Below, in pieces: positions 21,751-44,589 of a stretch of 64,000 nucleotides of DNA. The stretch is from a virus. The translations under genes and the position numbers were made by a program. Where the stretch lies: the IMG/VR virus record IMGVR_UViG_3300047481_001036. One strand, given 5' to 3'. The notes below the pieces were generated by a model. That model ran no database searches. It was not told the origin of the DNA and saw only the letters and a program-made list of their open reading frames with translations. The first letter of the stretch is position 1. The number at the start of each line of letters is the position of its first letter.

Positions 21751-21992
21751 TGGCTAATAAACTGGCCAATTTATATAGGGGTCGCTTACTATGTTTATAC
21801 CACCGGGAGGTTTTTCGACATTTCAGCCCAGTATCACGTAAAATGAAAAAACCCCCTAAGATGTTGTGGCATAAGTACTTAGGTGCTATTGTATCGCGAA
21901 ACTTGACGTAAGTACTTGTGAGATAATGACTTAGAATAAATGGCACGATATTTGCTGTCAGAAAAAATTCTCAAAAAAATTTTTCTAAGGTA

Positions 21993-22021
21993 TTGACACG
22001 GGTTTGGCCGATATGTATAAT
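21993..22021 (+). promoter_or_regulatory. sigma70-type early promoter, first of more than 20 with CCGATA in the spacer
   Basis: TTGACA-17-TATAAT. Related copies start near 22626, 23634, 26531, 27496, 28384, 29100, 30228, 31102, 31520, 32327, 32837, 34455, 34632, 35636, 36978, 37834, 38961, 40435, 40871, 41283, 42221 and 51634. Confidence 0.85.
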
Positions 22022-22049
22022 ATGCTCAACACAAGAGGAGATGACGAAA

Positions 22050-22274
22050 ATGATTGCGCTGAACACTGTGGCTGAGTTGACCGGGTTTCTGAACAACAAC
22101 TCTACTCTTTCGACCCTTGTGGGCGAAGTGGTTTTCTCTGGTGATCTGCTCGACCATGTTCGGGCTAACGGTAACGTGATCAACATCGACGAGGAGATCG
22201 GTTTCTGTGATGATGGTGGAGAAATCGTTATCGACGATAACGGGAATGTTGTTAGCGATATGTATATTCCGTAA
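22050..22274 (+). CDS. small acidic hypothetical protein
   Basis: GAGGAG SD; follows the promoter at 21993. Confidence 0.65.
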   Translation: MIALNTVAELTGFLNNNSTLSTLVGEVVFSGDLLDHVRANGNVINIDEEIGFCDDGGEIVIDDNGNVVSDMYIP

Positions 22275-22682
22275 GGTATTGACAACCTAAAAATTAGTTG
22301 CTAAAATAGGCTCAACACGAAAGGACGAATATGGACAGCGTAATTACCGTAATTTTTTCTTCTGATTGTTGTGGGGCTCATATGACTTTTGCACAGGCAG
22401 ATTATGAGATTTGCCCATCTTGCCTAGATCATTGCGAAGTAATTGGTGAAGAGGTTATCGAAGATCGAGGAGAATATTGATCGTAAACCCTTGCTACTAA
22501 AGCACTTAGAGAAAGGTATTGCGGCAAAACTTGACGTAAGTACTTAGCCCGTAATGACTTAGGTATACTAAAAATTTTTTATAGATTTGGCATGAAATTA
22601 TTTTTATTTTTCTAAAAGTTTTCTCTTGCATTTGGTCGATAATATTGGTAGAATCAAGTATCAAAGAAAGAGAGTGATAGAG

Positions 22683-22907
22683 ATGGAAAAGAGTATGAGT
22701 GTGAATGGTTTCCTTGCTACGCTTCCTAAGATTGTGCAAAAGAAAGTGTGGAAGGTTACGGATTCCACTGGTACGGTTGTACAGTATGTAGGCTCTACCG
22801 ATAATCGGAAAAGTACTGCTCAGGTGTACATCAACAGCAAGTATCCCGGTCAAAACTTGACCCTTACGTTTTCTCACTTCAACGGAATGATTGCTATCCC
22901 CCGATAA
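22683..22907 (+). CDS. hypothetical protein
   Basis: ORF after the promoter at 22626. Confidence 0.6.
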   Translation: MEKSMSVNGFLATLPKIVQKKVWKVTDSTGTVVQYVGSTDNRKSTAQVYINSKYPGQNLTLTFSHFNGMIAIPR

Positions 22908-22967
22908 GAGGGGTTGACGGGCGGGAAAAGTTTGGTATAATACTGGAAAGAGAAAGAGAGAAAGATT

Positions 22968-23180
22968 ATGAGCAAGAATGAAGTGATGATGATTGTGGAA
23001 AAGATTTTCGGTGATGATGCTAACCGTGTTCGCGTCAACATGAGCGGTGATTGCTACCGTATCGAATGGGAAGATGGTTGCCATTCGGTTAGGGTTAACG
23101 AAAAGAATGCGTTTGACAAGATTAACGATCTCTACTATGATGTTGCTTGTGAGAATGCTTCCGAGTTTGGTTGGTCTTGA
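22968..23180 (+). CDS. hypothetical protein
   Basis: Has its own TTGACG..TATAAT promoter and purine-rich leader. Confidence 0.6.
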   Translation: MSKNEVMMIVEKIFGDDANRVRVNMSGDCYRIEWEDGCHSVRVNEKNAFDKINDLYYDVACENASEFGWS

Positions 23181-23195
23181 ATAAAGGGTAAGAAA

Positions 23196-23306
23196 ATGAT
23201 TTTCAGTGATTATGTTCTCTTGACCGGTTTGCTTGCTGCCTGTGCATTTGTTTCGTATCTTGTGCATGAAATCGGCAACGCTATCAATTCTTATCTGAAC
23301 AGCTAA
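23196..23306 (+). CDS. 36-aa membrane peptide, paralogue of 26923-27033
   Basis: MIFSDYVLLTGLLAACAFVSYLVHEIGNAINSYLNS; 25/36 identical to the second copy. Confidence 0.7.
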   Translation: MIFSDYVLLTGLLAACAFVSYLVHEIGNAINSYLNS

Positions 23307-23847
23307 AGGCTATAATCATGGTTTTCTATATGTATCGTGCTGTTGACGCTAAACGCTTAGGTACAGTATATGCTATTGATTGGGTGGAAGCCCGCACACT
23401 AGCTACCCAAAAGTGGGGGTATAAGTTTGGCGAAGTGTTCGCATGTACAGCCCCATTGCCAGAGGAAGGCGGATTAGTGGTTTGGTGAACGTAAACCCTT
23501 ACTGCATAAGGACTTAGGGCAAATCGCGGGGCCGAATTCGACGTAAGTGGTTGGCATATATAGACTTACGACAACTCTATTTTTCTTCTCATTTGGCACA
23601 CGATTATTTTTCGGTTTTTTTCAAGAAAGCCTATTGACTTGGCCGATAATCTCTGTATAATAATGGCATAAGAAAGAAAGCAAAGGATAAGAAAATGAAG
23701 AATTGGATTTGCTATAACCTTTTTGGTGAAAAGGCTGATGATGTTGGCACTTTCGGAATGATTAGCGGATGTGCAATTATAGCCTTTCTTCTTTCGTCTG
23801 TTTTCTACTTTTTTGTTTATATTCCTCTTGTTTATTTTGGGTGAAAT

Positions 23848-24036
23848 ATGAATAGCCTTGATAAGATTCTTTCTGCTATGCGTACCGGTAAGTATGGTAG
23901 CGTTATTGACCCAAAGGGTAATGTGCATGTTGGCCTAATCAACTGCATCATGCGTGAGGATGGTAGTGGGAAGAACTGGATCGTTACGGTGACCAACCGT
24001 ACAGTAAGCGAACGGGTGTTCATTCACGCCAAATAA
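23848..24036 (+). CDS. hypothetical protein
   Basis: 62 aa, ends just before the repeat at 24044. Confidence 0.6.
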   Translation: MNSLDKILSAMRTGKYGSVIDPKGNVHVGLINCIMREDGSGKNWIVTVTNRTVSERVFIHAK

Positions 24037-24588
24037 TCGAACATAAGTCCTTGCTGCTAAAGGACTTAGAGCAAGGCGGTGCGGCCAGTTTTGACGTAAG
24101 TACTTATGCAGTAAGAGTTTACGCTCTGTATTTTTTCTAAACTAATGATTGGGGATTGGCCGATAATCTATATATAGAAAGAGAGGCCAAAATGTACGAT
24201 GTGGTTTTTTTGATTACCTTCATGGGATTCGGTATAGGATTTGAGGGGTGCGATGAGGGAAAGATGTATTTTGGGACGTATACGCCAAATAGGGAATATG
24301 GTTGGGTTGTAACGGATAAGGAAGTTTATTTGGATACGATTCTAGAAAAAACAAATGTTCAGTATTGACGCTTAAAGATTTTTCTGTATAATGCCGATAT
24401 AAGAAAGTAAGGAGAAAGAAAATGCAGTTTGCTCTTGGCGATAAGGTGAAGGTTGATGGGAAGTTTGGCCGAATCATTCTCTGGCATTTTGATGAAGGGA
24501 ATGTTTGGCATGTTGAGATTGACGGGGAAGAGTATGAGTGCTATGATGAGGACATGGAATTGATCTCCTGAAAATAAGGAAAATAAAA

Positions 24589-24741
24589 ATGGAAAAGATG
24601 ATCGACGAAAACGGAGAAGAGTGGATGATGGGCTTTTTTGAAGATGAGGGTTGGGATCCGATTATGGGAGATGCGGAAGACTGGGTGGAAACGGATGATG
24701 AGTGGCTGGACGATTTCCAGGGTGAAGAAGACTTTGCCTAA
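24589..24741 (+). CDS. 50-aa highly acidic protein
   Basis: MEKMIDENGEEW...DDFQGEEDFA; AAGGA SD; stop TAA is the first 3 nt of the repeat site at 24739. Confidence 0.65.
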   Translation: MEKMIDENGEEWMMGFFEDEGWDPIMGDAEDWVETDDEWLDDFQGEEDFA

Positions 24742-24988
24742 AGCGTTGCGGAGTAAAGACTTACGTCGCGGCGGGCCGCGAAAATTTGACGTAAGTACTT
24801 GTGGAGACTAGGTTTACGACACATTTCTCATCATACTAGATGTCCTATCAGAAGCCTCAAAAAAAAGACTCTCTCTAAACCTATATCTCATAAGGACTTA
24901 AGAACAATCTGGAATTTTTCTAAAGATTGCATTTGACTTTTGACGATAATTTATCGTATAATCTAGCATAAGAAAGAGAGAGTGAAAG

Positions 24989-25183
24989 ATGGAAAAGTTG
25001 ACTGTGACCGAAGAAATTGTCGTGTCTGCCCTGTTGAAAACCAGTGAGGACAACATGAGTTCCCTGATCGAAAGCGGTGTGAGTGAATCTCTTACCAAAA
25101 TGCTGATCGAGGATTTGCAGGCTCTTCGCGTAATCCGTCGCAAACTGGGTTTGGATTGCTATACCCCTCACGATAGGGGTTGA
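24989..25183 (+). CDS. hypothetical protein
   Basis: 64 aa after a promoter. Confidence 0.6.
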   Translation: MEKLTVTEEIVVSALLKTSEDNMSSLIESGVSESLTKMLIEDLQALRVIRRKLGLDCYTPHDRG

Positions 25184-25233
25184 CACCAATAGAAAGTTTT
25201 TGCTAGAATACGACCAACACGAAAGGAACAGTT

Positions 25234-25575
25234 ATGAAGCAGAAGTTTGAGATCATCGAAAATGCTAAGCGTCAAGCCCGTATGTGCTTTCTGGGGATTG
25301 CCATTCCTCACCAACCCTCTCTTGCCGAAGGGGTTTACGGCCCTATTCGCTCGGAAAAGGTTCTGAAGTTCAATCGAAAGGCACTTCGCAATTTGGGCAA
25401 AGTACAGAAAGAAAAGACGAATCCCCGTCTTATTGGGGGTGAGGATACCATGATCGTGAAGGCTGGAAAGCCGGGTTCATGGGAAAGGGTTGAAGCACTG
25501 GCTCACCAATATGGTGCGATTTTGGCGTGTGGTGAGGAAGTTTCTCCATTCGCATTCAAAGCAAGTGATGAATGA
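25234..25575 (+). CDS. hypothetical protein
   Basis: 113 aa, AAGGA SD, own promoter. Confidence 0.65.
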   Translation: MKQKFEIIENAKRQARMCFLGIAIPHQPSLAEGVYGPIRSEKVLKFNRKALRNLGKVQKEKTNPRLIGGEDTMIVKAGKPGSWERVEALAHQYGAILACGEEVSPFAFKASDE

Positions 25576-25832
25576 TTGTTCACTACTGAACAAAAGCTTG
25601 ACGTAAATCCTTACTATCACAGGACTTGCGTCAAGTTGCTGGGCCCGACTAGCTCTAAGTACTTATCCTACAACAACTTAGATACATAATTGCAAATCAT
25701 ATGCCAAACTATAAAATTTCTAAGATTTTTCTGTCAAAATTTCTTGACAATATTTTTTCGATTTTTCTCTTGAAAATTCAAGATTGAGACGATATAATGT
25801 CGATATAAGAAGTAAGAAAGAAAGAGGAAACG

Positions 25833-26039
25833 ATGAATAGCAAGACGATTGCAAAAGAGTTGCAGAAACTGGGTTACACGCTCAAGCGGACTTCTGACGT
25901 TGAAGCCCGATGGATGGTTCGCTCGGATGTGCTGACCTACCATTGGGACTTCAAGGACTTGAAGGGGGTTGAGCGATTTATGGTAGATGAGCGGGCTATG
26001 TATCGTTATGCCAAAGCCAACGGAGCAACCCTACGATAA
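25833..26039 (+). CDS. hypothetical protein
   Basis: 68 aa, GAGG SD. Confidence 0.6.
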   Translation: MNSKTIAKELQKLGYTLKRTSDVEARWMVRSDVLTYHWDFKDLKGVERFMVDERAMYRYAKANGATLR

Positions 26040-26095
26040 AGGGGTTGACACAAAAACACTTTTTGATAAGATACAACAATAAGAAAGGGATAAAT

Positions 26096-26407
26096 ATGAC
26101 ACATGCTGAAGCAGTTTCTATGGTTCGTGGCAAGCGTAACGCAACTCGTCGCAAGGTTGGCAACAACACCTATGCGGAAATCCTGCATGACGGGAGCGTG
26201 GGTATCATGCTGCATAGTACCTATGTGGTAAAGATTCATGAGGATAATACCTACACTCTAAATAGTGGAGGCTGGCAAACTCTGACCACAAAGGATAGAA
26301 TCAACCAGTATAGCCCGCGTTATGTCTATCAAAAGAATTTCGAATGGTTTGTAAAGATCAACGACAAATCCTATCCATTTATGGATGGTATGGTGGTGGG
26401 AAACTGA
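26096..26407 (+). CDS. conserved phage hypothetical protein
   Basis: TLNSGGWQTLTTKDRIN motif. Confidence 0.65.
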   Translation: MTHAEAVSMVRGKRNATRRKVGNNTYAEILHDGSVGIMLHSTYVVKIHEDNTYTLNSGGWQTLTTKDRINQYSPRYVYQKNFEWFVKINDKSYPFMDGMVVGN

Positions 26408-26582
26408 TCGTAAAGCCTTATCCCTAAACGACTTAGGGTGAGGCCGCGCCCCCCGCAGCGTCGTAAGTGCTTATGCAGCAACACTTTATGACGAGAAAAA
26501 TATTTTTGGATTTTTTTTAAGAATACCCTATTGACAGGACGATAATCTATGGTAGATTAGCAGTATCCAAGGAGAAAAGAGA

Positions 26583-26870
26583 ATGAATGCCACGAAGCGA
26601 AATATGGTTGAGCGGATCGCGGAGAAGGTGGGGGTGACGGGTTTGCAGGCCAGAGAAATCGTGCAGGCCACGTTGGATGATCTGGTCGCAACGCTCGCGG
26701 CGGAAGGTCGCATCGAATTGCGTAACTTTGGCGTGTTTACGGTCAAGGTGTCCGCTCCGCGTAAGGCTCGCAACCCACGAACGGGTGAGACTGTGATGAT
26801 CGGTGAGCGTAAGGTAGTAAAGTTCAAGGCCGGAAAGGCTATGGAGAATACCGTAAACCGACAAGGCTGA
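26583..26870 (+). CDS. HU/IHF-family DNA-bending protein
   Basis: RIELRNFGVFTVK...ARNPRTGETV...VKFKAGK. Confidence 0.92.
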   Translation: MNATKRNMVERIAEKVGVTGLQAREIVQATLDDLVATLAAEGRIELRNFGVFTVKVSAPRKARNPRTGETVMIGERKVVKFKAGKAMENTVNRQG

Positions 26871-26922
26871 GACTTGACAAGTTAGATTTTTAGGATACAA
26901 TGCACCTTGAGAGGAGTTTGCA

Positions 26923-27344
26923 ATGAACGCTATGGATTATATTTTTCTTTTTGGTTTGCTTGCTCCGTGTGCTTTTATCAGCTATACTGTGCATGAAATT
27001 GGAAATGCTATAGCGTCCTATCTGAACGATTAAAAAAGGTTAAAAATATGATAGGGGTTATACTAGTGCTATTAGGTTTGCTTGTATTGGCTACGGTTGG
27101 CGGAGTTGTTTTGGCTATCATGGATATTTCAGCCGAAAATTATTAATATAAAGGATCACGGATGGTCGATATACAAATAGATTGGATGTGGATGGGTGTG
27201 GGATTTGTTGTTGGCATTGGTAGTGCTTGGCTTGTTTCTGACTTGGTTTTCCACTAAAAAATAGAAATAAAAATGAGTAAAGAAATTCTTTGGGCTGTTT
27301 CTTTTATTCTCGGTTCTGTAGTAGCTTTATTCGCTAATATCTAA
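26923..27344 (+). CDS. four tandem small membrane peptides (26923-27033, 27048-27146, 27162-27257, 27273-27344)
   Basis: Manual translation: 36, 32, 31 and 23 aa, each with one hydrophobic helix; most have an SD. Confidence 0.55.
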
Positions 27345-27548
27345 ACTAGCTCTAAACCCTTGTGGCGTAAAGACTTACGTCATAAAGGGCCCGCCCCGCG
27401 ATACCTAAGTCGTTGCAGCATAAAGACTTAGGATCAATCTTTACACACGCAAATACTGTGCCATAAAATTTTTGTTTTTCTCCAAAGTTTGAACTTGCAT
27501 TTGGTCGATAATTAGTGTAGACTCAGAGCATCAAGAGGAGGAAGAATC

Positions 27549-27707
27549 ATGCTCAACGATTTTGATGATGTGAATCGGATTCTTGCAGAGATGGCCGACG
27601 ATGGTATGATTGAGCCTATTGATGATCCCAATGTCGAAATTAACTTTTGGGATTGGGCAGATGTGGTGGGGTGTGTAGAAGATTTTGTCCCCGAGGAGGC
27701 GTTTTGA
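27549..27707 (+). CDS. 52-aa acidic protein
   Basis: GAGGAGG SD; MLNDFDDVNRIL...EEAF. Confidence 0.65.
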   Translation: MLNDFDDVNRILAEMADDGMIEPIDDPNVEINFWDWADVVGCVEDFVPEEAF

Positions 27708-27791
27708 TGTTGGATTTGCTCTTGACGGTATGCGGAGTCGTGCTATACTTCGGATTCCTTTATTTGAACCTCACTCTGGAAAGGAACTAAT

Positions 27792-28070
27792 ATGAGTCAC
27801 CCAGATCCCCTTTTTGATCCTGATAACTCTTATGAGGATGATATGAATTACGACTATTATAACGATTACTTTGACGAGGATAGTAGTAACTATCATCCGG
27901 ATGCGGATCATGAGATTTCTACTCATACTGATGATGATTATGAGAACGAGGAAGAAGATGTTTGGAATGATGATGTCGATGATAGTATGGATGGAGATTT
28001 CGACAGTGCCATGCGAGATGCTGGATTTGGGACAGACGAGGATTATGGCTATTATGGAGAAGATTTCTAA
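27792..28070 (+). CDS. extremely Asp/Glu/Tyr-rich protein
   Basis: 92 aa with a single Arg and no Lys; AAGGA SD. Confidence 0.7.
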   Translation: MSHPDPLFDPDNSYEDDMNYDYYNDYFDEDSSNYHPDADHEISTHTDDDYENEEEDVWNDDVDDSMDGDFDSAMRDAGFGTDEDYGYYGEDF

Positions 28071-28273
28071 TGTTGACGATAAAAGAGTTTCGACAGTTGG
28101 TAAATGCTGAACTGAATAAACAGTGTGGTCTCTCTCTTGGTGATCTGCCAGATTTTGATCTGTACAATTACTATGATCCAGAACTGAATCCGCAAGAAGC
28201 CAATGATATTGCAGTGGAAGCGGCACATGATTTGCTCTATGAGGAAGGCTTTCCTCTGGAAGAAATGGTGTGA
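28070..28273 (+). CDS. hypothetical protein
   Basis: 67 aa, TAATG-coupled to the upstream gene. Confidence 0.65.
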   Translation: MLTIKEFRQLVNAELNKQCGLSLGDLPDFDLYNYYDPELNPQEANDIAVEAAHDLLYEEGFPLEEMV

Positions 28274-28417
28274 TCTAAACCGTTGTGGCGTAAGCACTTA
28301 CGTCGCGGCGGGCCGCAAAAACAAGCCATAAGTCTTTATATGACAAGACTTTAGAGACAAAATATTTTTTCTGAAGTTTTCTCTTGACTCTGACCGATAA
28401 TAGAGTAAGATAAGCGT

Positions 28418-28576
28418 ATGATGAAAAAGCAAAAAATCAAACTGGAAGTTAAGCCAATCTGGGCAATTGGCAAGGGTCATAACGTCCACAATAGCGGCTC
28501 GGGTCAGCACGACAATAGACCCAAGAGACTCCGTACCCGTCAATCAAGGAATAATCAGGCTATAAATGACTGGTAG
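28418..28576 (+). CDS. 52-aa basic protein, paralogue of 39244-39411 (possibly leaderless)
   Basis: W...KGH...DNRPKRLRTR; ATG lies 6 nt after the -10 TAAGAT. Confidence 0.6.
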   Translation: MMKKQKIKLEVKPIWAIGKGHNVHNSGSGQHDNRPKRLRTRQSRNNQAINDW

Positions 28577-28679
28577 TCTCTGCTAATCTTATGGAATCGG
28601 CTGGTGTGGCTGTAGTCAGCGAAAATATAGCGGTCTTGACAATCAAAAATTACAGTGTAGAATCTATAAAAAGAAAGGA

Positions 28680-28982
28680 TTGGTTATGGCTGGTATGACT
28701 CTGCAAGATTGGATTAATGCTTATATTCCCAAGGAGAATGAGAAGAATATGGTGAAGGTTAATGTTACTCACACAGATACTTTTGGTGGTGAACCTAACT
28801 ATGGTTGGGTAAAGCGTCATGAGTTTACCATTCATAAACATGCTTCGCAACGTAATATCGTTCGCAAGGCTAAGGCTCTGGCTGGAATGACGGGGGTTAA
28901 GGCCGATACTTATGATTACGGAGATAGTTATACCGTAAAGCCTAGAGGCTATCATCAGGTTATTTTTGTGGATTTTGAGTGA
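28680..28982 (+). CDS. conserved phage hypothetical protein
   Basis: THTDTFGGEPNYGWVKR motif. Confidence 0.65.
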   Translation: MVMAGMTLQDWINAYIPKENEKNMVKVNVTHTDTFGGEPNYGWVKRHEFTIHKHASQRNIVRKAKALAGMTGVKADTYDYGDSYTVKPRGYHQVIFVDFE

Positions 28983-29152
28983 ACATCACCCTAAACCCTT
29001 GGTGCTTCGGCACTTAGGGTGGCGGGTGCGGCCGAGCTGGTCGTAAGTTCTTATTTCTCAACACTTTATAGCTAAAATATTTTTTTTAAGTTTTTTCTCT
29101 TGACAAGCCGATAATATATGGTAGAATCCAAAGATGAAAGAGAGAGTGAAAA

Positions 29153-30114: not shown

Positions 30115-30280
30115 TCTCTAAAGTCTTGCAATTAAAAGACTTAGAAGCAAGCGACACCGCCGGATTTGACGTAAGTTCTTACTCCTTAATGCTTTACGAT
30201 CAAAAAAATTTTTTTAAGATTTTTCGCTTGACAAGCCGATAATAGTATTGTAGGATAGAACGCAAGAAAGAGAGGACAGT

Positions 30281-30502: not shown

Positions 30503-30568
30503 CAATTGATGATAATAGTGTAGAATGTTGGAAACGTCATGGTTAGATTTCTCTAAGAAAGGTTTGAT

Positions 30569-30976: not shown

Positions 30977-31723
30977 AAATTGAGCGTCCATAAAAACCCC
31001 TAATCCTAAGTTGTTGCTATGGCAGAACTTAGGACGGGGCGGCGCCGCTAAATTTTCCATAAGTGCTTATCTAATATAGGGTTACGATAACTAAATTTTT
31101 CTTGACAAATTGCCGATAATAGATATAATCAGGCTAAGGAGAAAGTGATGCACACTTGGCGAGTTTGGCAAAATAATCGGATTGTTGGTTATATAACCGC
31201 AGTATCCGAATACGAAGCATACGCAAAAGCCACTGATAAATACGGACGGTATCTTTGGGTTGAACGAATACTAGATAACTGTCCTGCCTAATCCTACGGA
31301 TTTGGGTTGTGTGGGTGTAGTCAGCGAAACTTAGAGGACTATAATGAGTGCAATATCGAATGCTGTTGAATCTTTATTCAAAACTAAAAATGTAGAATTT
31401 TCTCAGTTTGAAATATGTATGCTTATTGCTGGTCTATATCTTTTGAAGGATAAACAAGAAGAATTCTATAAAGGAATGATTCACAATCTAATCGAAAAAG
31501 TTTCTAAAGTTGAGGACACTTGACAGCCGATAATGGCTATGCTAGAATCTAAAATCTATGGTAGACTACTCTGACGATACGTTTAGCATTGTGGAGATGA
31601 TTGCTAACGGCAAGGGACTTGCTCTGGTTTGTCATTATCACTACGAGTTGCATAATGGCGATGAGGTGGTATACTGGTCGTACTACTTGCACGATATTCT
31701 AAAGTTTTTGAGGAACTATAAAA

Positions 31724-32203: not shown

Positions 32204-32355
32204 ACGCTTCCTCGCTCTAAGTGCTTAGCCCAAGGGCACTTAGGGCGAGTGGCCGCGGCCCGCTGCGTCGTAATTGCTTACCCCACAACGCTTTGCATCA
32301 AAAAATATTTTTTCAAGCAAATCCTATTGACAAGCCGATAATAGAGTGTAGAATG

Positions 32356-32872: not shown

Positions 32873-32958
32873 GGCGAATGTAGTTTAACTGGAAAAACAC
32901 TCTTCATACAATATATTATATGATTAAGACTTGATGGTTCGAGTCCATCCATTTGCCC
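32873..32958 (+). ncRNA. tRNA-like RNA with non-canonical anticodon arm
   Basis: Acceptor GGCGAATG/CATTTGCC, D arm GTTT/AAAC, T arm GATGG-TTCGAGT-CCATC; no 5-7-5 anticodon arm. Confidence 0.6.
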
Positions 32959-33149: not shown

Positions 33150-34370
33150 TGACTTGGCGAACCGGAAAACCTATTGATATGGGTTATTATCTTTGTGCTA
33201 TTGTTGGTAATAATAAGCCTACTGAATTATATTGGGATGGTTCTGTTTGGAGTTATCAAAATACCGATTGGGAAACTCTTGATAATAATGAAGTAGCCTA
33301 TTATATGTATCTTGGTGATATTCCTATGCCGGAGGGTTGGTAATGAAAGCCTATGCTATTGTTTGTGAGTACGGGGCCGCTAGTATTCATGAATCTATTG
33401 AGATGATTTGTAAGACTGAAAAGATTGCACGATCATATTATAATGATGCTGAGTTTTATGGTAGGCCGGTTGATATTCGTGAAATAGAGATTGTGACCAA
33501 ACCATATCAGAAGTCTCCTATCTACTTGAAAAGTATCAAAAGAAAAAAGGTTAAGAAATGACCGTTAACGAACTGGTTGAGCAGTTGAAAAGTTATCCGG
33601 GCGATATGAGGGTTCTTACTCTTGGTTATGAGGGTGGGTATCATGATATTAGGTTGGATAATGACGATATTGTGTTCGATGTTAAGCGTGGTGATGGGGC
33701 TTGGTATTATGGGCCTCACGAATGTGTGAAGTTTACCGATGAGAAGGTTGGTACTCTGTGTTTGATTGTTGGGAGAGGTAAATGATCTATCTTAATCTGA
33801 ATGAAATTGAAAGATTGTGTGAGATTGTGGCCGAGTTGACAAAGTTGAAGATGGGCGTGGTGGCTGAACTCAAGGGTACTAAGTGGATTATTGAGGTTAC
33901 TAACTAATGGAATGGAATAACTCTCATAAGAATCCTCCAACCGAAGGCCAGAAAGTTTATTACTTTGGGCCACAAATCGGTATAGGAATTGGTTATTATT
34001 CTTTTAACGAGAATAGTTCATTTACTCCATACTATTATGATGACAATGGTGTGAAGGTATATGAGGATAAAGTAATAGAACTATGTCCACATGTTTTCAA
34101 GAATACTGACAATACTTACTGGGGGATCGTGGACGCTTGTGATGCTCCTTACTGGCTTCCTTACGATGAGGAACGAGCCAAGAGTTGGTGTCCGATTATT
34201 CCAGAGAAATATACGAAAGATTTGTACGATTGAATATGGAACTTAAAACACTTAGCGATATTTGTCCGTGTGGGGCGTGTGAAGTTTTGGTGTGGAAGTA
34301 TGATAATAATGGACTTATCTGGAACTTTTGCCAGAGATGCCATTGGTGGTATGTCGGAAATGATTGGTAG
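33150..34370 (+). CDS. run of small hypothetical genes (to 33343, 33561, 33785, 34233, 34370)
   Basis: Overlapping co-oriented ORFs; two have DUF551-like W...P starts. Confidence 0.55.
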
Positions 34371-34666
34371 ATAAGGACTTACGACCAACCCGGCGGCGGA
34401 AATTTGACCTAAGTTCTTATCCAACAACGACTTAGGATATATTAAAGATTGCTCTTGACGTTTGCCGATAATAGAGTATACTAATACGGCAGGACAGAAA
34501 CGGGCCGCTGGCAGAATAACGTTAAAGAAGCCACGGTTAAATGCAAGGCCGAGTATGGCATAACCCGGTCTGTCTCTGCTAATCCTACGGATTTGGCTAG
34601 AGTGGCTGTAGTCAGCGAAAGTTTAAAGGTCTTGACAAGATTTAGCCGATAAGGTATACTGGTAAC

Positions 34667-35514: not shown

Positions 35515-35800
35515 TCTAAAGCCTTGTCCCTAAAGAACTTAGGGTGAGGCGGCGCGGCCCGATTTGACATAACTCCTTATAGCAAAACAACTTAGGAACA
35601 ATTCAAATAATCTGGAATTTTGATTCACGAACCGTCTTGACAATGACGATAACTAAGGTATACTGATAGCATCACACGACAAGAGTGCCAAACGATCCCG
35701 AAAACAACAAAAGTTCGGATTGGCCCTTGACAAGTGATGATGTATATGGTATGATTACTTTACTTGGTTAGATTACACTTTTTGGAAAGGGTTTATTACT

Positions 35801-36052: not shown

Positions 36053-36066
36053 CCTTGACAAACTGG

Positions 36067-36275: not shown

Positions 36276-36281
36276 GAATAC

Positions 36282-36354
36282 GCTGCCGTGGCCGAGTAGA
36301 TTAGGCATCAACCTTCTAAGTTGACTCACGAGGGTGCAAATCCTTCCGGCAGTA
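36282..36354 (+). tRNA. tRNA-Arg(UCU)
   Basis: GCTGCCG/CGGCAGT acceptor; TCAAC-CTTCTAA-GTTGA; variant T loop TGCAAAT. Confidence 0.85.
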
Positions 36355-36811: not shown

Positions 36812-37027
36812 AATAATCTCCTATCTGAAGTTGCTACTACTTCTATATACACCAAAGCATATTCGATTCTAACTCTTTTGCTGGTAAGGACTTAGGACAA
36901 ATCAGAGGGGCCGGGTTCGACGTAACTCCTTTAGCTTCAACAACTTACGCCAAAATAATTTTTCCACAATTTTTCTCTTGACAGTGCCGATAATCTAGTG
37001 TAGAATCACGAGACACAGGAGATAATC

Positions 37028-37732
37028 ATGAAAGTTGCAAACGGTAACGATAAGTTGGGCAAGGGTTGTTTGGTCGTTTCTCGTCCGGTTGGTGATACTT
37101 GTCCCTCGGATTGTGATTTTCTCGGTAACGGTTGCTATGCCGAAAATACTGAGAAGATTTATCCCAATGTTCGTCCCGCCGGTATGCAAAATCTTATCAC
37201 GGAGAAAAATCGTATTCGTGCTATGATTCTCGACGCCTTGCGTCAAGGTAAAAGTATCCGCTGGCATGAACGTGGCGATTGGTTTCTCAATGGCGAACTC
37301 GACACCAACTATGTTGATAACGTAGTCTGGGCATGTGAGAGTATTCTTGCCGAAGGTAAGGCTCTGCCCGATATGTGGTTTTATACTCATATCTATGATA
37401 ATAGGCTATCATCTATGGAAAAGTATATGGCGGTCTATGCTAGTATCCATGATGCTAATGATAAGGCCGAAGCGGTTGCCGCTGGTTTCAAACTCTTTGC
37501 ATGGTGCGATAGCGACGAGAAAATTGTTAGCAAGCGTCCGCGTAACAAGGCTAAGGCCGATGCTTGGCGAGCAGCGTTGCCGAAACTTGTTGTGATTGAC
37601 GATGCCAAATATGTTACTTGCCCCGAAATCCGTCGTGGTCGCGGAGTTGTGACTTGTACCCCCACAAAGGGTAGTGTGTCGTGTGACCTTTGTGTTCGTG
37701 GTTTGGCTAACGTGCTTTTTCCTTCTCACTAA
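37028..37732 (+). CDS. phage gp88-like protein
   Basis: TCPSDC...CYA...IRWHERGDW...WFYTH...CP...CDLC. Confidence 0.65.
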   Translation: MKVANGNDKLGKGCLVVSRPVGDTCPSDCDFLGNGCYAENTEKIYPNVRPAGMQNLITEKNRIRAMILDALRQGKSIRWHERGDWFLNGELDTNYVDNVVWACESILAEGKALPDMWFYTHIYDNRLSSMEKYMAVYASIHDANDKAEAVAAGFKLFAWCDSDEKIVSKRPRNKAKADAWRAALPKLVVIDDAKYVTCPEIRRGRGVVTCTPTKGSVSCDLCVRGLANVLFPSH

Positions 37733-38052
37733 ACATAAAGCCTTGTACCTAAAGAACTTAGGACAAGGCGAGCCGCGAGAATTTGTTCTAAGTACTTGAC
37801 GTCAAACGATTTAGATTTATTCAAGATTTTTAGTTGACAAAGCCGATAATACTCTGTAGAATAGAAGCAATCGAAGGGAGAAAACTATGGAACTCTGGCA
37901 AATTGTCGATGATACTAAAGTGCGTCATGTATGGCGTTGTGCTGAATGTGAAGATGAAATAAATATTGTTCCGTGGTGGTATCAAGATAATGGTACTCCA
38001 GTTTGTGTAGATTGTGATGAAGATATGTTGTATCTTGGTACGGAGATGAGAA

Positions 38053-38628
38053 ATGCCTAAGTTTGATTATGTAGGACAATTTACTGATGGTGGAAGTCTG
38101 AATGGATTTTATAAACTTAAAGGCAGAAAATACGGATTTAAAAGTTTTCCAAATCAGAGTTTGGCTGATTTTTCTCATGCTGTGCAGAAAGATTTGTCTA
38201 GTTCAGATTTAGCCCCTAGAGTCTATAGTCCAGTATGCAAAATTAGGGTACCTAATTATTTTGCAGAATCTAATGGGCGTGGTGGTATCCGTACTGTTAC
38301 TCATATGGTCTTAAGTAATTGGGGGTATCTGACTGAAATTGCCAGTCCTTATATCTCTGATGATGGAATGTGTGAGTATGACGATGAAGTTAATGATCTT
38401 TTAGAGATGTTGTATAAATACTATGGCATTGACTATAGTGATAGTCATGAAGGCAATTTTGGTTATGTAAAACGTTTGGGTAAAAAGAAGTTGGTAGTAA
38501 TTGATTTGGGTGCTGAAGGAATAAGTATTGATGACGAAGATGAAAGGTATCCAAAGGTTTGTTGGGATGGTGCCGAGGATTATTCTTGTTATTGTACAAA
38601 CTGTGTAGAAAGATATAGCTATGTCTAA
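38053..38628 (+). CDS. protein-kinase-like fold protein
   Basis: YGFK, LAPRV, catalytic-loop-like DSHEGNFG, VIDLG. Confidence 0.6.
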   Translation: MPKFDYVGQFTDGGSLNGFYKLKGRKYGFKSFPNQSLADFSHAVQKDLSSSDLAPRVYSPVCKIRVPNYFAESNGRGGIRTVTHMVLSNWGYLTEIASPYISDDGMCEYDDEVNDLLEMLYKYYGIDYSDSHEGNFGYVKRLGKKKLVVIDLGAEGISIDDEDERYPKVCWDGAEDYSCYCTNCVERYSYV

Positions 38629-38866
38629 ATATTATATTAAATGTGGTACTCTAGAATTAATTTATTCTACTAATAAAAATCCTTTAGATGCTGCTATTAC
38701 AACATTAGGAGAATGTAATCAATTTGATATTCTAGATGAATATTTTTATATAGATGAAAGAGGATTTAAAGACTATGTAACAGCAGATAAAAATACTCAA
38801 GTAATTAAACTGAATAAAATATGTAGAAAAGCTGGTTGGGAAATTAATAAAGAAGACGAGTTGTAA
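38621..38866 (+). CDS. hypothetical protein
   Basis: Stop TAA is the start of the repeat site at 38864. Confidence 0.6.
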   Translation: MSKYYIKCGTLELIYSTNKNPLDAAITTLGECNQFDILDEYFYIDERGFKDYVTADKNTQVIKLNKICRKAGWEINKEDEL

Positions 38867-39011
38867 ATCTAAGGGACTACAGCACTTACGGCTGGTCCCT
38901 CCGCGTTATTCGGTTCTAAGTCTTTGTTTTTCAAGTACTTAGGAAAAACTAAAGAAACAATTGACAGATGCCGATAATTATGATATGCTTGTTAGAAGAA
39001 AAGGAGAGCGG

Positions 39012-39269
39012 ATGATCCAGTGGATTGGTGTGATAATTGCATTATTGGGATTGGCCTATAATGGTGTAAAAGATTATCAGAAAGGCGATATAAAAATACC
39101 GCAACTGCCACAAAAACAAGTATTGACAAAACCGGTTTATCCTATACAATACTGTTTAATGGCTTATGATCCTAATTTAGACAAGGTTTTTTATCTTCAC
39201 GAAAACGGTCAATGGTTTGATTATGCACCACCTCAACGACGATATGCGACCCAAACGCAATCACAATAA
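39012..39269 (+). CDS. membrane-anchored hypothetical protein
   Basis: AAGGAG SD; N-terminal hydrophobic helix. Confidence 0.6.
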   Translation: MIQWIGVIIALLGLAYNGVKDYQKGDIKIPQLPQKQVLTKPVYPIQYCLMAYDPNLDKVFYLHENGQWFDYAPPQRRYATQTQSQ

Positions 39270-39411
39270 AATTAAAATAAAGACTAAAAAGCCTTGGGAG
39301 TTGGCTACAGGACACAGAGAGGAACGTAATACGTTATTTGATAATCGTCCGAAACGTATGCGTACCCGTCGAGACATTGACAAAACTTGGCGAAACGAGT
39401 ATGATATGTAA
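39244..39411 (+). CDS. small basic protein, paralogue of 28418-28576
   Basis: PWELATGH...DNRPKRMRTR. Confidence 0.6.
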   Translation: MRPKRNHNKIKIKTKKPWELATGHREERNTLFDNRPKRMRTRRDIDKTWRNEYDM

Positions 39412-39416
39412 TATGA

Positions 39417-39492
39417 CGGGGAATAGAGAAGCCTAGCCGTTCTCGTCGGTCTCATAAGCCGAAGATCGTGGGTGCGAATCCCACTTCCCCTA
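39417..39492 (+). tRNA. tRNA-Met(CAU), initiator-like
   Basis: C1:U72 mismatch; TCGGT-CTCATAA-GCCGA (only two of the three initiator G-C pairs). Confidence 0.8.
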
Positions 39493-39555
39493 CTTGTCGT
39501 GTCTACCCATGTGGATAGAGCGATCTTGACTCGTCAGAAATGGCGAGTCTTGCGG

Positions 39556-39627
39556 GCCGATGTAGCACAACGGTAGTGCAATTGATTTGTAATCAATAGG
39601 TTGAAGGTTCAAATCCTTTCGTCGGCT
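39556..39627 (+). tRNA. tRNA-Thr(UGU)
   Basis: ATTGA-TTTGTAA-TCAAT; full cloverleaf. Confidence 0.92.
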
Positions 39628-39640
39628 TATTGGAAATTAT

Positions 39641-39850
39641 ATGGAAAAACCTAAAAAGTTTATTGATTCTACTGTTGGAACCCTAGATATTTTATCTAAG
39701 GGCAAGATAGAGTATGTTTTTATTCATACTGCTTCTTATTTAGCTAATAAAGAGTGCGATAAATTAGAAGCTATGGGTCATTGGTTAATACAAGCTGCAC
39801 AATATCTTAGAGAAAGCAAAAAGGAGAGCGGAAGTCATAGAGATAGATAA
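39641..39850 (+). CDS. hypothetical protein within tRNA cluster
   Basis: 69 aa. Confidence 0.5.
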   Translation: MEKPKKFIDSTVGTLDILSKGKIEYVFIHTASYLANKECDKLEAMGHWLIQAAQYLRESKKESGSHRDR

Positions 39851-39853
39851 TAT

Positions 39854-39926
39854 TGCCCGATAGCTTAATTGGTAGAGCGGCTGACTTTGGATCAGCTGGT
39901 TGTAGGTTCGAGTCCTACTCGGGCAT
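39854..39926 (+). tRNA. tRNA-Gln(UUG)
   Basis: GCTGA-CTTTGGA-TCAGC. Confidence 0.92.
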
Positions 39927-39929
39927 TTA

Positions 39930-40015
39930 GGAAACTTGGCAGAGTGGTCGAATGCGTCTGACTAGAAATCAGATGAGGCTAATAACCTCCGTGGGTTCGA
40001 ATCCTACAGTTTCCG
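39930..40015 (+). tRNA. tRNA-Ser(AGA)
   Basis: TCTGA-CTAGAAA-TCAGA; long variable arm; G73. Confidence 0.9.
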
Positions 40016-40019
40016 TTAT

Positions 40020-40092
40020 TGCCCAGTAGCACAATGGTAGTTGCAAGCGGCTGTTAACCGCTGGGTTGTAGGTTCGAGTCCTACCTGGGCAG
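40020..40092 (+). tRNA. tRNA-Asn(GUU)
   Basis: AGCGG-CTGTTAA-CCGCT. Confidence 0.92.
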
Positions 40093-40097
40093 TTTTT

Positions 40098-40184
40098 GGA
40101 ATCTTGGCCGAGTGGTTTAAGGCAGCGGTTTACTAAACCGCCGAGGGTTAAAATCCTCCGTGGGTTCGAATCCCTCAGATTCCG
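40098..40184 (+). tRNA. tRNA-Ser(ACU)
   Basis: GCGGT-TTACTAA-ACCGC; long variable arm; G73. Confidence 0.9.
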
Positions 40185-40185
40185 T

Positions 40186-40256
40186 ATTGGCGTAGTTCAA
40201 CGGTAGAATGACGGTCTCCAAAACCGTAGATGAGGGTTCGATTCCCTCCGCCTTTG
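40186..40256 (+). tRNA. tRNA-Trp(CCA), two U-U mismatches in acceptor stem
   Basis: ACGGT-CTCCAAA-ACCGT; acceptor ATTGGCG/CGCCTTT. Confidence 0.75.
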
Positions 40257-40258
40257 CT

Positions 40259-40338
40259 GGTGAGTTTCCAGAGCGGCAAATGGGCCTGACTGTAGATCAG
40301 GTGCTTCGGCTTCGGGGGTTCGAGTCCCTCACTCACCA
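40259..40338 (+). tRNA. tRNA-Tyr(GUA)
   Basis: CCTGA-CTGTAGA-TCAGG; the repeat element begins at the next base. Confidence 0.92.
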
Positions 40339-40488
40339 TAAAATATTGATAACAAAAGACTTAGAGCAATTTGATCGGCCGAATCATACCTAAGTACTTA
40401 TTCTTCAACAACTTAGATTTTCTAAAGACTTCTCTTGACAGTAGCCGATAATAGTGTAGAATACGAGCAACACAAGAGGAGAAGAATC

Positions 40489-40854
40489 ATGGGTTTGGAT
40501 CAGTATGCATATTGCGTTGATAACAATGGAGAAAAGGAAGAATTGGCGTATTGGCGTAAGCATCCTAATCTCCAAGGTTTTATGGAACGTCTCTGGGAAA
40601 GCAAGGGTCGTCCCGGTGATCGTGATGAACATAATATGCTGGGAGATTTTAATTGTATCCCAGTAGAATTGACTTATGAAGATTTGGATAGTCTGGAGAA
40701 GGCGGTATCATCTAAAGGATTACCGGAAACCGGCGGATTCTTTTTTGGTAGCGATAGTGACGAATATTACAAGAATCAGGATTTGGAGTTTGTAGGCAAG
40801 GCTCGTGAAGCACTTGATGCCGGTCTGCATGTTTTTTACGATAGTTGGTGGTGA
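40489..40854 (+). CDS. conserved phage hypothetical protein
   Basis: MGLDQY...YWRKH...GFFFG...YDSWW family pattern. Confidence 0.7.
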   Translation: MGLDQYAYCVDNNGEKEELAYWRKHPNLQGFMERLWESKGRPGDRDEHNMLGDFNCIPVELTYEDLDSLEKAVSSKGLPETGGFFFGSDSDEYYKNQDLEFVGKAREALDAGLHVFYDSWW

Positions 40855-40987
40855 AATCCTAAAGAACCAGTTGACAGATGCCGATATACACTGTATAATA
40901 CAAAACTGACCATCAAGCATAATCGTAAAGAAAAAGGGACGCTTTGCTTGCAAAGATGATCCAGCGTGGTATGATGGTGGTCTACTC

Positions 40988-41063
40988 GGGGCGTAAGGTA
41001 AGCCGGTTGCATCCGACACTCTTATAAGGTGTTCATAGGTACGTTCGACTCGTACACGCCCTA
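40988..41063 (+). tRNA. tRNA-Ile(UAU)
   Basis: GGGGCGT/ACGCCCT; ACACT-CTTATAA-GGTGT; GTACG-TTCGACT-CGTAC. Confidence 0.8.
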
Positions 41064-41096
41064 CTCGGAGGCTGACGTTTTTTTGAGTTACGAAGT

Positions 41097-41169
41097 GGCC
41101 CTATCGTCTAACGGTTCAGGACTTCGGATTTTCGTTCCGAATATCGGGGTTCGAATCCCCGTAGGGTCA
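41097..41169 (+). tRNA. tRNA-Glu(UUC)
   Basis: TCGGA-TTTTCGT-TCCGA. Confidence 0.9.
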
Positions 41170-41208
41170 TTTGACAAATAGAAAAAGTACGATATACTAT
41201 ATAAAAAT

Positions 41209-41281
41209 GGGCCTCTAGCTCAATTGGCAGAGCAAGGAGCTTTTAACTCTTAGGTTCAGGGTTCGAGTCCCTGGGGGCCCA
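41209..41281 (+). tRNA. tRNA-Lys(UUU)
   Basis: AGGAG-CTTTTAA-CTCTT. Confidence 0.92.
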
Positions 41282-41331
41282 CTTGACAAGTTTAGCCGAT
41301 TGGTGTATAATAGTTTTACTCGGGAGAGATT

Positions 41332-41532
41332 ATGATGAATGATAATGAGTATGAATACGATTATCACGATCTGGCACAAAACTCTGAAGACTTGTATGAA
41401 GACGAGTGCTACTATGACGATGGTGTAGACGAGTCTTGGATGGTTTTAGATGACGATGAAAAAGAAACCACAGATGATAATGGTTGGGATAATTACTATC
41501 ATAATCTAACAGATGAAATCATAGACGATTGA
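41332..41532 (+). CDS. highly acidic small protein
   Basis: 66 aa, D/E/Y-rich, own promoter at 41283. Confidence 0.65.
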   Translation: MMNDNEYEYDYHDLAQNSEDLYEDECYYDDGVDESWMVLDDDEKETTDDNGWDNYYHNLTDEIIDD

Positions 41533-41630
41533 TCTCTCCTCAACGGATGCAACTTGGTGGGACAAGTATCTATTCACTCCTTTCTTTCTTTTCTCTAAGT
41601 ACGTTCGAATCGTACCATCCGTTATTAATC

Positions 41631-42128
41631 ATGTCAGATATACTCAATAGTAATATCGAAGATTGTCGTAAAACAGACACAGGGGTTATTCAAGGAGCGT
41701 CTCATACCTGTAGAGTATTGAACCATAAGAATCGTAATAAGATTATTATTAAGGCAGTATGCGATCTAAGAAAAATATATGATGATTTTGATAGTATTGC
41801 TTGCTGCGGCGTAAGCGGTTTGATGGTAGTACCGCAGATAGCAGAAATTCTTAATAAGAACATAGTTATTATTAGAAAACAAAATGAAAAAAGATATAGC
41901 GATTTTTATATCGAAGGAGTTTCTCCTTTTAGATATGTTATTGTTGATGATCTGATTTGTTCTGGTAATACCGTTAAGTGGATACAAAATGCTATTTACG
42001 AAGATAATCCTAAAGCCAGATGTGTAGGATTGTATTGTTATTTGCCAGAAGAATGCTCTTATACTAAAGACACCGCTAAACTATTTTATCAAAGATACAA
42101 AATAAATCTCCTAAACCCTGCTCCATAA
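41631..42128 (+). CDS. type I phosphoribosyltransferase-like protein
   Basis: YVIVDDLICSGNT PRPP-binding motif. Confidence 0.75.
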   Translation: MSDILNSNIEDCRKTDTGVIQGASHTCRVLNHKNRNKIIIKAVCDLRKIYDDFDSIACCGVSGLMVVPQIAEILNKNIVIIRKQNEKRYSDFYIEGVSPFRYVIVDDLICSGNTVKWIQNAIYEDNPKARCVGLYCYLPEECSYTKDTAKLFYQRYKINLLNPAP

Positions 42129-42291
42129 TAGACTTAGAGCATTTTGCGTGGGCCGGGCTAGCCATAAGTACTTGCCAGTAAAAGACTTGCGAACAAAAAA
42201 TTTTTCCGCAAGTTTGGCTATTGACACGCCGATAATAGATGATAGAATCAGCGTATCGGAACGAAGAATCAGTAACACGAAAGGGTTGATT

Positions 42292-43239
42292 ATGCCTGCT
42301 ATGGTTGAAAAGATGATGTTTGTCGGTGCTACCCCGTGGCACGGTGAGGGTACGCAGTTGGAAGAGAACCCGTCTATCAGCGAGGCTATTGTTGCCGCTG
42401 GTCTGGATTGGGAAGTCGGCACTAAGCCGCTGTTTACGTCGGAAGGCGAGGAGGTCAACGCTAAGGCGACTTTCCGCAAGACCGACAACCGTGTTCTCGG
42501 AGTCGTGGGGCCACGTTATACGCCGCTCCAGAATCAGGATGCTTTCGATTGGTTCCAGCCTTTTCTTGACGCTGGCGAGTGTCAACTGCATACCGCCGGT
42601 TCGCTCAGTGAGGGCGAGAAGGTTTGGGTGCTGGCTCAACTCAACCGTGACAATTGTGAGATTGTCAAGGGTGATGAGGTGAGCAAGTTTATTCTGCTGT
42701 CTAACAGCCACGACGGTACAACGTCGATCCGCGTCGGATATACTCCGATTCGCGTGGTCTGTGTTAATACCCTCGCCGCTGCTCATACTAGCAAGGAAAG
42801 TTCTCTGATTCGGATTCGTCACACACGCTCCAGCAAGACCAATCTGGAGAACGTGCGAGATATTATGGACAATATCAACGCACAATTTGAGGCGACTGCG
42901 GAACAGTATCGGTTCCTCGCGTCTAAGGATTTCAACCAGAATGACGTTCGTAAGTACGTCAAGGTGCTGCTCGGGATCGACAAGACCCCGGACGAGGATA
43001 TTAAGACTCGTACCCGCAACATCATGGACGAGATTCTTACACTCGTCGAAGGCCCGAAGCAGAGTGCTACCGGGGTTCGTGGAACATGGTGGGCTGCCTA
43101 CAACGGTTTCAATGAATATCTTAACTACACTAAGGGTCGTTCGGTGAGCAACCGTCTCGATTCACTCTGGTTCGGCCAGAATGGAGTTGAGAACCGCAAG
43201 GCTCTCGACACGGCTATGGAGTTTGCGAACGCCGTCTAA
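42292..43239 (+). CDS. DUF932 (TIGR03299-like) phage/plasmid protein
   Basis: PWHGEG...GLDWEV...YTPLQN...LSNSHDG...TPIRVVCVNT...GTWWAAYNG. Confidence 0.85.
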   Translation: MPAMVEKMMFVGATPWHGEGTQLEENPSISEAIVAAGLDWEVGTKPLFTSEGEEVNAKATFRKTDNRVLGVVGPRYTPLQNQDAFDWFQPFLDAGECQLHTAGSLSEGEKVWVLAQLNRDNCEIVKGDEVSKFILLSNSHDGTTSIRVGYTPIRVVCVNTLAAAHTSKESSLIRIRHTRSSKTNLENVRDIMDNINAQFEATAEQYRFLASKDFNQNDVRKYVKVLLGIDKTPDEDIKTRTRNIMDEILTLVEGPKQSATGVRGTWWAAYNGFNEYLNYTKGRSVSNRLDSLWFGQNGVENRKALDTAMEFANAV

Positions 43240-43263
43240 TCCTTTCGTGGTGCGGTTCAATGC

Positions 43264-43308
43264 GAGAGGGCCGCTGCTGGGCAACTGGCGGCGGCTCTCT
43301 CCGTTTTT
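43264..43308 (+). terminator. intrinsic terminator
   Basis: GAGAGGGCCGCTGCTGG-GCAA-CTGGCGGCGGCTCTCTC followed by a T run. Confidence 0.75.
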
Positions 43309-44589
43309 ATTTAAAAAAGCGTATCGACATAAGATATTGATAAATAAGCACTTACGACGGGTCGGGCCCGCAAAATTTGTCGTAACTTTAAATACCACAA
43401 GGACTTAGGAGATTTCCTATAGACTATCTGACGAAATGACGATACAATAGATGTAAGTGTCTTAGAGACAAGGAGTTAGGAACAATATATTGTTTAGATT
43501 TATCTTTGTCGTATCTAATCCTACGGAATTGCCGAATATGCCAACAGTCAGCCAAAAGTATGGTAGTATTATGTTTGGTAATGATTCTAAGTATAGTAAT
43601 ACCAATCACTTGCGTAAAGTTCCAATGTGTGGTATACTGTAGGAGTAGGGGAGGTATTAGGTATACTAATAATCTCTTATATATTTGAGATTGATTATCA
43701 ATAACTCTGTCTCATCTAATCCTACGGATTTGGCGGTCTTAGTGATAGTCAGCGAGTTTTATGGGACCTATTATGTTTAGTCCAATAGATATAACGGCTT
43801 ATCTTTCAATATTGCTAGTATCATATGATATTCATAAACCTAGTATCATTTCTTATAATTCATATACTACTACTCATATCATTACTAATTCTGATATGTA
43901 TGATGTAAATAAGATTATAGAAAAAGCATTTATGCAGGAAGAAAAATGATAAAATGTTTTAGTTTTGTTCACGGGCATAAAAATGCTCAAGAAATAGTTG
44001 TTGATCTTAATGGAATGAAAAGTATCCAGAGTGATCCGTTCTATATACAATATGATAGAAATAAGGATTATGGTAAGGATGATAGTTATTGTATTAGGGG
44101 AAATGTTACTGAAAATGATTGGGACGAATTAGATTTGTCTAGCGATTTTATGGAGATTTAATATGCAAGTATTTGTAGTATTTGATTTTCCCGGTGTTGA
44201 TCCTGACAGTGAAGAAGCAGACAATATTGTAGAATGTCTTGAAATTGATCTTGAACATTTTGCTGAAGAAACTGGACACTCTTGGTATATTGATGATGCT
44301 ATGGCCGATTAGTTAAATTGTTATAGTACGGTCATTGTGGATGTCGATATGTATGGTATACTGGCTCTATTGCAAAGGAGGTCAAGGAGTACACGAATGA
44401 AGGTTATTAATATTACTATGGAATTAGTTATTGATGACGATATTACTAATCTGGATAAGATCGCAGATTATCTGAATAATAAACTATATACTGATCCAGA
44501 ATTTTTTGGAGATTTTGGGCCTGAGAATATAGAGTCTATTGATAACGAGGACGGAACTCCTATTTATGACCAAAAATATGGGTGGGCTA

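Follow-up and report, generated by a model that had tools for sequence, protein, structure and literature searches.

The stretch analysed here (the window, 64,000 nt; IMG/VR record IMGVR_UViG_3300047481_001036) is a segment of a large uncultivated tailed phage of about 200 kb. Structural genes for portal, terminase and capsid occupy the minus strand and reach to about 18.6 kb of the window; they are followed by a rightward run of small genes that includes 13 tRNAs. Within this run a composite element of about 78 bp recurs behind gene ends and in front of promoters, and it is the subject of the present analysis. A DNA search for a cultured relative returned tRNA genes as the sole matches and no close phage, and the S8 peptidase, used as a query for relatives, found nothing. 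The terminase shares no more than 26% identity with its counterpart in any cultured phage, and on this measure the clade is unrelated to the T4-like phages.

Both strands were searched for the pattern TAANNNNTT-N7-AANNACTTA with at most one mismatch and with shuffled sequences as control. This gave 54 strand-hits where 2.3 were expected, and all but one of them fell within 21857–43478. A profile made from 19 aligned window copies located 21 elements between 21857 and 43407, and the plus strand outscored the minus strand at every one. Each element consists of a 25-bp dyad with a 9-7-9 layout, a G+C-rich linker and a second 25-bp dyad. Since the linker has 28 nt in 17 copies and 27 nt in four, the start-to-start period is 52–53 bp, which corresponds to five helical turns. 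The pattern search and the profile scan thus confirm the 21 paired elements that a first-pass annotation of the window had described at this period. They also agree with its description of the arms: the site consensus is TAAGTnCTT-N7-AAGnACTTA, the inner half-sites ACTTA and TAAGT are near-invariant, and the left outer arm is weaker (TAAA or TAAG). Two of the 21 copies, at 25604 and 32218, are degenerate. All 21 are placed after gene ends in the small-gene region from 21.9 to 43.4 kb. An element starts 3–5 nt past the upstream stop codon or supplies the stop itself; the two TAA stops already attributed to elements, at 24739 and 38864, are correct, as is the location of one element directly after tRNA-Tyr.

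Related phages were gathered through the 363-residue protein encoded at 42148–43239 of the window, which yielded 80 IMG/VR contigs, many of them 200–240 kb long. Extending the profile scan to these relatives added about 470 copies, 335 of them distinct, in 65 of the related loci. The 9-7-9 layout is invariant, with a centre of 7 nt in 448 of 448 sites, and the linker measures 28 nt in 320 of 342 pairs, while its sequence varies freely. In the five complete relatives (223–244 kb), strict matches are confined, with one exception, to a single region of about 20 kb per genome. More distant relatives carry single 25-bp dyads in place of the pairs, and no element was found in the relatives G006, G008, G009 and G016. 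When a proper marker of orientation was used, 133 copies were in plus and 12 weak ones in minus orientation, and the promoter was always to the right of the element. An apparent inversion of about 20% of the elements relative to the promoter was rejected as a binning artefact.

The element is coupled to promoters of the sigma70 type. In the window, a TTGACA-N16-18-TAnnnT promoter begins 95–142 nt from the element start in 14 of the 21 copies, in agreement with the strong downstream promoters first noticed there. An A/T tract and a sigma70-like promoter are found downstream of 250 of 329 distinct copies. The promoters share a layout of A/T tract, TCAAG motif, TTGACA, CCGATAAT in the spacer and TAGAAT. 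Distances between the right dyad, counted from its first T, and the –35 hexamer are quantised, with values of about 45, 55–56, 66 and 83–86 bp. With one count per sequence family, 46 of 67 families fall no more than 1.5 bp away from a grid of 10.5 bp, where 19 would be expected; the families are not fully independent and, as the grid was fitted to data already seen, the nominal p-value is too favourable. In the single-site relatives, distances of 56–57, 86 and 96 bp to the –35 hexamer are kept. Rigid spacing and phasing are traits of a protein-DNA assembly that needs a fixed helix face relative to RNA polymerase.

Table 1. Positions of the elements, the solitary sites and one example promoter in the window.
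Feature	Position	Strand	Remark
Element 1	21857..21933	+	27-nt linker
Element 2	22484..22561	+	
Element 3	23492..23568	+	27-nt linker
Element 4	24044..24121	+	
Element 5	24739..24816	+	First TAA is the stop codon of the open reading frame (ORF) 24589-24741
Element 6	25604..25680	+	Left site degenerate
Element 7	26411..26488	+	Upstream of the promoter of the IHF/HU-family gene
Element 8	27353..27430	+	
Element 9	28276..28353	+	
Element 10	28992..29068	+	27-nt linker
Element 11	30119..30196	+	
Element 12	31007..31084	+	
Element 13	32218..32295	+	Degenerate
Element 14	34357..34434	+	
Element 15	35517..35594	+	
Element 16	36870..36947	+	
Element 17	37736..37813	+	Left border of segment 37733-38620, which is missing in relative L004
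Element 18	38864..38941	+	Provides, with its first TAA, the stop of ORF 38621-38866
Element 19	40339..40415	+	27-nt linker; first base coincides with the final base of tRNA-Tyr (40258-40339)
Element 20	42112..42189	+	
Element 21	43330..43407	+	Final copy of the array
Solitary 25-bp site	24876..24900	+	No partner site
Solitary 25-bp site	43454..43478	.	No partner site
Example promoter	29100..29127	+	TTGACA, CCGATAAT in spacer, TAGAAT; 108 nt from the start of element 10

The arms of the sites vary without compensation. In the 335 distinct copies, arm columns 64/78 form 95 standard pairs where 142 are expected, and columns 65/77 form 80 where 98 are expected. Mid-arm positions within the 25-bp sites are accordingly uncompensated and even depleted in pairs. 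Moreover, an arm pairs less favourably with its own partner than with arms of other copies, in the two local hairpins as well as in the inner ACTTA/TAAGT pair. The non-compensatory character of the arm variation, originally read from the window copies, therefore holds on the larger set.

Hence, we propose that the element is a DNA-level regulatory module, namely a putative site for a symmetric protein that is coupled to sigma70-type early promoters. We put the probability of this reading at roughly 0.55. The setting would be the early, hyperplastic region of the phage. A 28-bp G+C-rich spacer, free in sequence, keeps two 25-bp dyad sites at a separation of exactly five helical turns, and the pair precedes a sigma70-type early promoter by a helically phased distance. 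A symmetric protein, either one dimer per site or one oligomer over both sites, would bind there and bend or wrap the DNA. Binding would set or time about 20 early promoters jointly and would insulate each unit from its upstream neighbour. Most likely, the element is a protein-binding control and insulator element that also marks the borders of gene modules rather than a site-specific recombination site. Of the two options initially offered for the window, the one that fits the evidence best is an array of operators or insulators that bind a multimer and by which early promoters would be co-regulated, because of the rigid spacing, the phased –35 distance, the uncompensated conservation and the confinement to one early region.

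As to the binder, the best lead and the most specific candidate, judged from the site pattern and gene content, is a protein of the IHF/HU type (DNABII). A gene of this family lies inside the array (26583..26870, plus strand; PF00216, 96.6 bits) and encodes an RNPRTGE arm. Its homologues in relatives occupy the same syntenic place, with elements on both sides. Close homologues of the window protein (80–92% identity) are common on related phage contigs. The sites themselves read TAA-N4-TTG ... CAA-N4-TTA, which corresponds to two inverted CAA-N4-TTR cores of the IHF consensus. Of the core positions, C74 is present in 206 of 335 copies, A75 and A76 in more than 93%, T81 and T82 in 100% and R83 in 335 of 335. 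The conserved TT and AA steps of a site are 9 bp apart. HU-family proteins intercalate prolines and kink DNA at points 9 bp apart, and DNABII footprints extend over 24–37 bp (PMC2528193). A DNABII homodimer may be the binder, encoded by the phage in the window and by the host in relatives that have no such gene.

Several observations weigh against a protein site of this kind. The phage DNABII gene is missing in five of the five complete element-bearing relatives, and as an obligatory partner it was rejected. It cannot be the general partner, and the role would have to fall to a DNABII protein of the host or to some other factor of the phage. Of the IHF consensus WATCAANNNNTTR, the 'WAT' part is not kept, and the three bases before CAA vary. 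No binder is conserved across the clade, and the role as a protein site is itself something we infer from sequence. Besides the post hoc fit of the grid, about one quarter of the copies have no recognisable promoter within 140 nt, and about 24 of the window's strong promoters are not accompanied by an element. Finally, in part of the copies the left arm and the 7-nt centre are complementary to the first ~10 nt of their own linker. Over all copies, the duplex with the own linker has an energy of –8.2 kcal/mol compared with –6.8 kcal/mol for linkers of other copies (z –10.7); for the window copies alone the values are –7.8 and –4.9 kcal/mol. Of the pairs in this inverted repeat, 18% are U-G. A pure protein-site model does not explain it.

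This inverted repeat speaks for an RNA element, the most probable of the alternatives, although we regard it as unlikely. The upstream transcript would form a hairpin displaying UAAAGNACUUA as well as a second hairpin, and the structure would act as a factor-dependent terminator, a processing site or a stabiliser of the 3' end. Such a role would suit elements that begin just behind a stop codon or provide it, and all copies are co-oriented with transcription. The array region contains about 45 strong promoters but no canonical intrinsic terminators. Furthermore, the U-G pairs favour the plus strand, columns 9–43 fold 2.7 kcal/mol better than shuffled sequence, and the stem-loop part of the PeSL promoter/stem-loop cassettes of T4-like phages terminates transcription (PMC2839356). 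On the other hand, the left-arm/linker repeat is strong in only about half of the copies and shifts in register; in the other half the hairpin is weak or missing. RNAalifold predicted no consensus structure for 19 window copies. A covariance model that combined a helix on the left with a hairpin at the right site was rejected, since 49% and 59% of the cells were paired in two registers of the left helix, no better than with shuffles or slid partners. Mutual information over the 335 copies revealed no helix; neighbouring columns dominate as a result of register slippage. The linker, taken as a terminator hairpin, has a folding energy equal to that of shuffled sequence, and no U tract was seen after any stem. 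A scan for intrinsic terminators gave 19 hits where 13 were expected, and a single one (29027–29045) overlaps an element. No family of Rfam 15 matched at any element, even at E values up to 1. Since the RNAalifold, fixed-column, arm-pair, linker-fold, terminator and Rfam tests were all negative, the element is not a conserved RNA fold, with a hairpin possible in some copies. Neither the exact linker length nor the phasing to the next –35 hexamer would be expected of an RNA signal.

A site for site-specific recombination, like the attC of integrons or dif/pdif, by which a host Xer-like or other recombinase would move promoter-plus-gene cassettes, is very improbable. The 9-7-9 geometry recalls such sites, and the conserved mismatches in the arms recall folded attC sites. 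In relatives at 88–99% identity, starts of high-identity blocks accumulate at the elements, with 43 in the 15 nt at the left edge and 34 in the left site (77 in total). Block ends, however, show no pile-up and no excess over other gene ends of the arrays. Compared with other gene ends in the same arrays, the starts are enriched 1.9-fold (28/144 versus 87/771), with a p-value of about 0.009 on non-independent data. Aligned examples fall into two classes. In one, the downstream promoter and gene keep the whole element while all upstream DNA is replaced; in the other, the linker and right site travel with the downstream promoter and gene while the left site, moving with the upstream DNA, is replaced. 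The change-points are scattered along the element, between columns –5 and 97, and do not favour the 7-bp centres, where a recombinase was expected to leave them; the centres also differ among copies. Flank families at elements showed no clean contrast in shuffling against control offsets, because promoter flanks are alike between different units. Relatives at 70–80% identity largely preserve the gene order, with local gains, losses and replacements. In all five complete element-bearing relatives, no tyrosine recombinase (PF00589) scored over the cut-off, and neither a serine recombinase (PF00239) nor a Y1 transposase (PF01797) was hit. Thus, the integron- or pdif-like cassette system that the first-pass annotation had considered is not borne out. 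What stands of the cassette idea is a looser, PeSL-like modular exchange: the pattern of breakpoints in these alignments fits exchange at conserved regulatory repeats and not a dedicated site-specific system. For the proposed protein-bound module, mild hot spots for the exchange of gene modules between related phages would then be a side effect of repeat conservation, as for PeSLs.

Least probable is a passive repeat whose sole role is to carry a promoter upstream region and which multiplied by duplication or in the manner of a selfish MITE/REPIN-like element: the many copies, their imperfect palindromes and the identical left sites at two places in relative L004 would suit it, but the repeat has a single orientation, region and position class (after a stop, before a promoter), its geometry is invariant across diverged phages, and searches for a Y1 transposase (PF01797) gave no hits in the five complete relatives.

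The two elements concerned in L004 start at positions 6643 and 8719, share the left site TAAGTTGTTGGTATATAAAGACTTA and each directly follow a different tRNA gene. In another relative, L085, genes resembling GIY-YIG/HNH homing endonucleases lie within the element arrays (1677–2837 and 10083–10517); these are a possible further source of local mosaicism.

Some further features of the promoters and of neighbouring genes may be recorded. In the early promoter family (e.g. 29100–29127, 30228–30256 and 36978–37006) a conserved (G)CCGATAAT stands immediately 3' of TTGACA, and the TCAAG motif lies about 9 nt upstream of the –35 hexamer; together they may form a second protein site. Just past element 1, at about 21941–21956 on the plus strand, TGGCACGATATTTGCT fits the –24/–12 consensus of sigma54, and elements 2 and 3 are followed by TTGGCA(C/T)-N5-TATTT variants. 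These sigma54-like matches after the first three elements may be mere variants of the TTGACA..CGATAAT promoter family. The first rightward gene (18814–19047, plus strand) encodes a 77-residue product, which is kept in 12 of 16 related records, one of them element-free, and for which an Atlas feature search gave a weak GcrA-like lead (0.86). As a regulator co-occurring with the element this product was rejected as a discriminator, for it is also present in the element-free relative G008. A Pistol ribozyme match (RF02679; 36062–36124, plus strand; 55.4 bits against a gathering score of 34.5) sits within the element array between an 83-aa ORF and tRNA-Arg. An Rfam tRNA match at 32874–32957 (plus strand, 40.2 bits) has no counterpart among the ARAGORN calls.

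The closest known kind of element is the PeSL of T4-like phages, from which the present one differs by its rigid double-dyad architecture. PeSLs are repeated cassettes of a stem-loop and a sigma70 promoter; they stop transcription, undergo recombination and give rise to mini-circles (Arbiol et al. 2010, PMC2839356; Comeau et al. 2014, PMC4122927). In the two kinds alike, composite repeats occupy the intergenic spaces between small ORFan genes of a hyperplastic early region, and an upstream palindromic part is followed by an A/T-rich tract and a near-consensus sigma70 promoter. Borders of indels and replacements between related phages fall at or in the motif in both cases, here to a modest extent (odds ratio 1.9). 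In contrast to the simple G-run/C-run stem-loop of a PeSL, the element described here has two conserved 25-bp dyads at a fixed 53-bp period, helical phasing to the promoter and no supported RNA helix. Of the terminator trait of the PeSL stem-loop it shows hairpin potential in part of the copies, with no helix that beats the controls and no U tract.

The sites also resemble DNABII sites, such as the E. coli IHF consensus WATCAANNNNTTR and the sites of SPO1 TF1 at early promoters. Shared traits are the CAA-N4-TTR half-sites, the flexible TT/AA steps 9 bp apart, which would match two proline kinks, a 25-bp length within the range of known footprints (PMC2528193), and a DNABII gene in the array. 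The differences are the two-fold symmetry of the present site, in contrast to the asymmetry of IHF sites, the lack of a conserved 'WAT', and the five complete relatives without a phage DNABII gene. With attC and dif/pdif sites the element shares inverted arms around a 6–8-bp centre and a position at the borders of gene cassettes. Its cassettes, unlike theirs, carry their own promoters, the two sites stand at a fixed, duplex-phased spacing, the breakpoints are off-centre, and the recombinase searches of complete related phage genomes were negative. A further parallel is the regulator p4 of phage phi29, which acts on the host RNA polymerase from upstream positions; its operators are inverted repeats 15 bp apart, with several sites near early and late promoters. 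The 5–6-nt inverted half-sites of p4 at this distance resemble the TAAGT-N15-ACTTA of the present element, and several sites per control region are common to both. The array described here differs by serving about 20 promoters instead of three and by its rigid two-site unit.

Taken further, and only as a tentative suggestion, the double dyad could be the early-regulon operator of a sequence-specific, two-fold symmetric DNABII protein (IHF/TF1-like). Two U-turn bends, separated by five helical turns and in phase with the promoter, would wrap the upstream DNA, jointly switch about 20 early promoters on or off and wall off the units from each other, and the repeats would serve as portable joints by which promoter-gene modules move between phages.

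In large phages, most of the uncharacterised, fast-changing genes are found in the early region, and how dozens of tiny transcription units are coordinated and shuffled is little understood. The clade described here offers a clean, sequence-defined handle on this question, with a rigid 78-bp element, hundreds of natural variants, a helical geometry that is fixed with respect to a consensus promoter, and a candidate binder. If the binder is found, the element would be a second case beside the PeSLs, and a mechanistically different one, of a single repeat that unites regulation with modular exchange. A compact insulator and operator part for synthetic biology would be a further gain.

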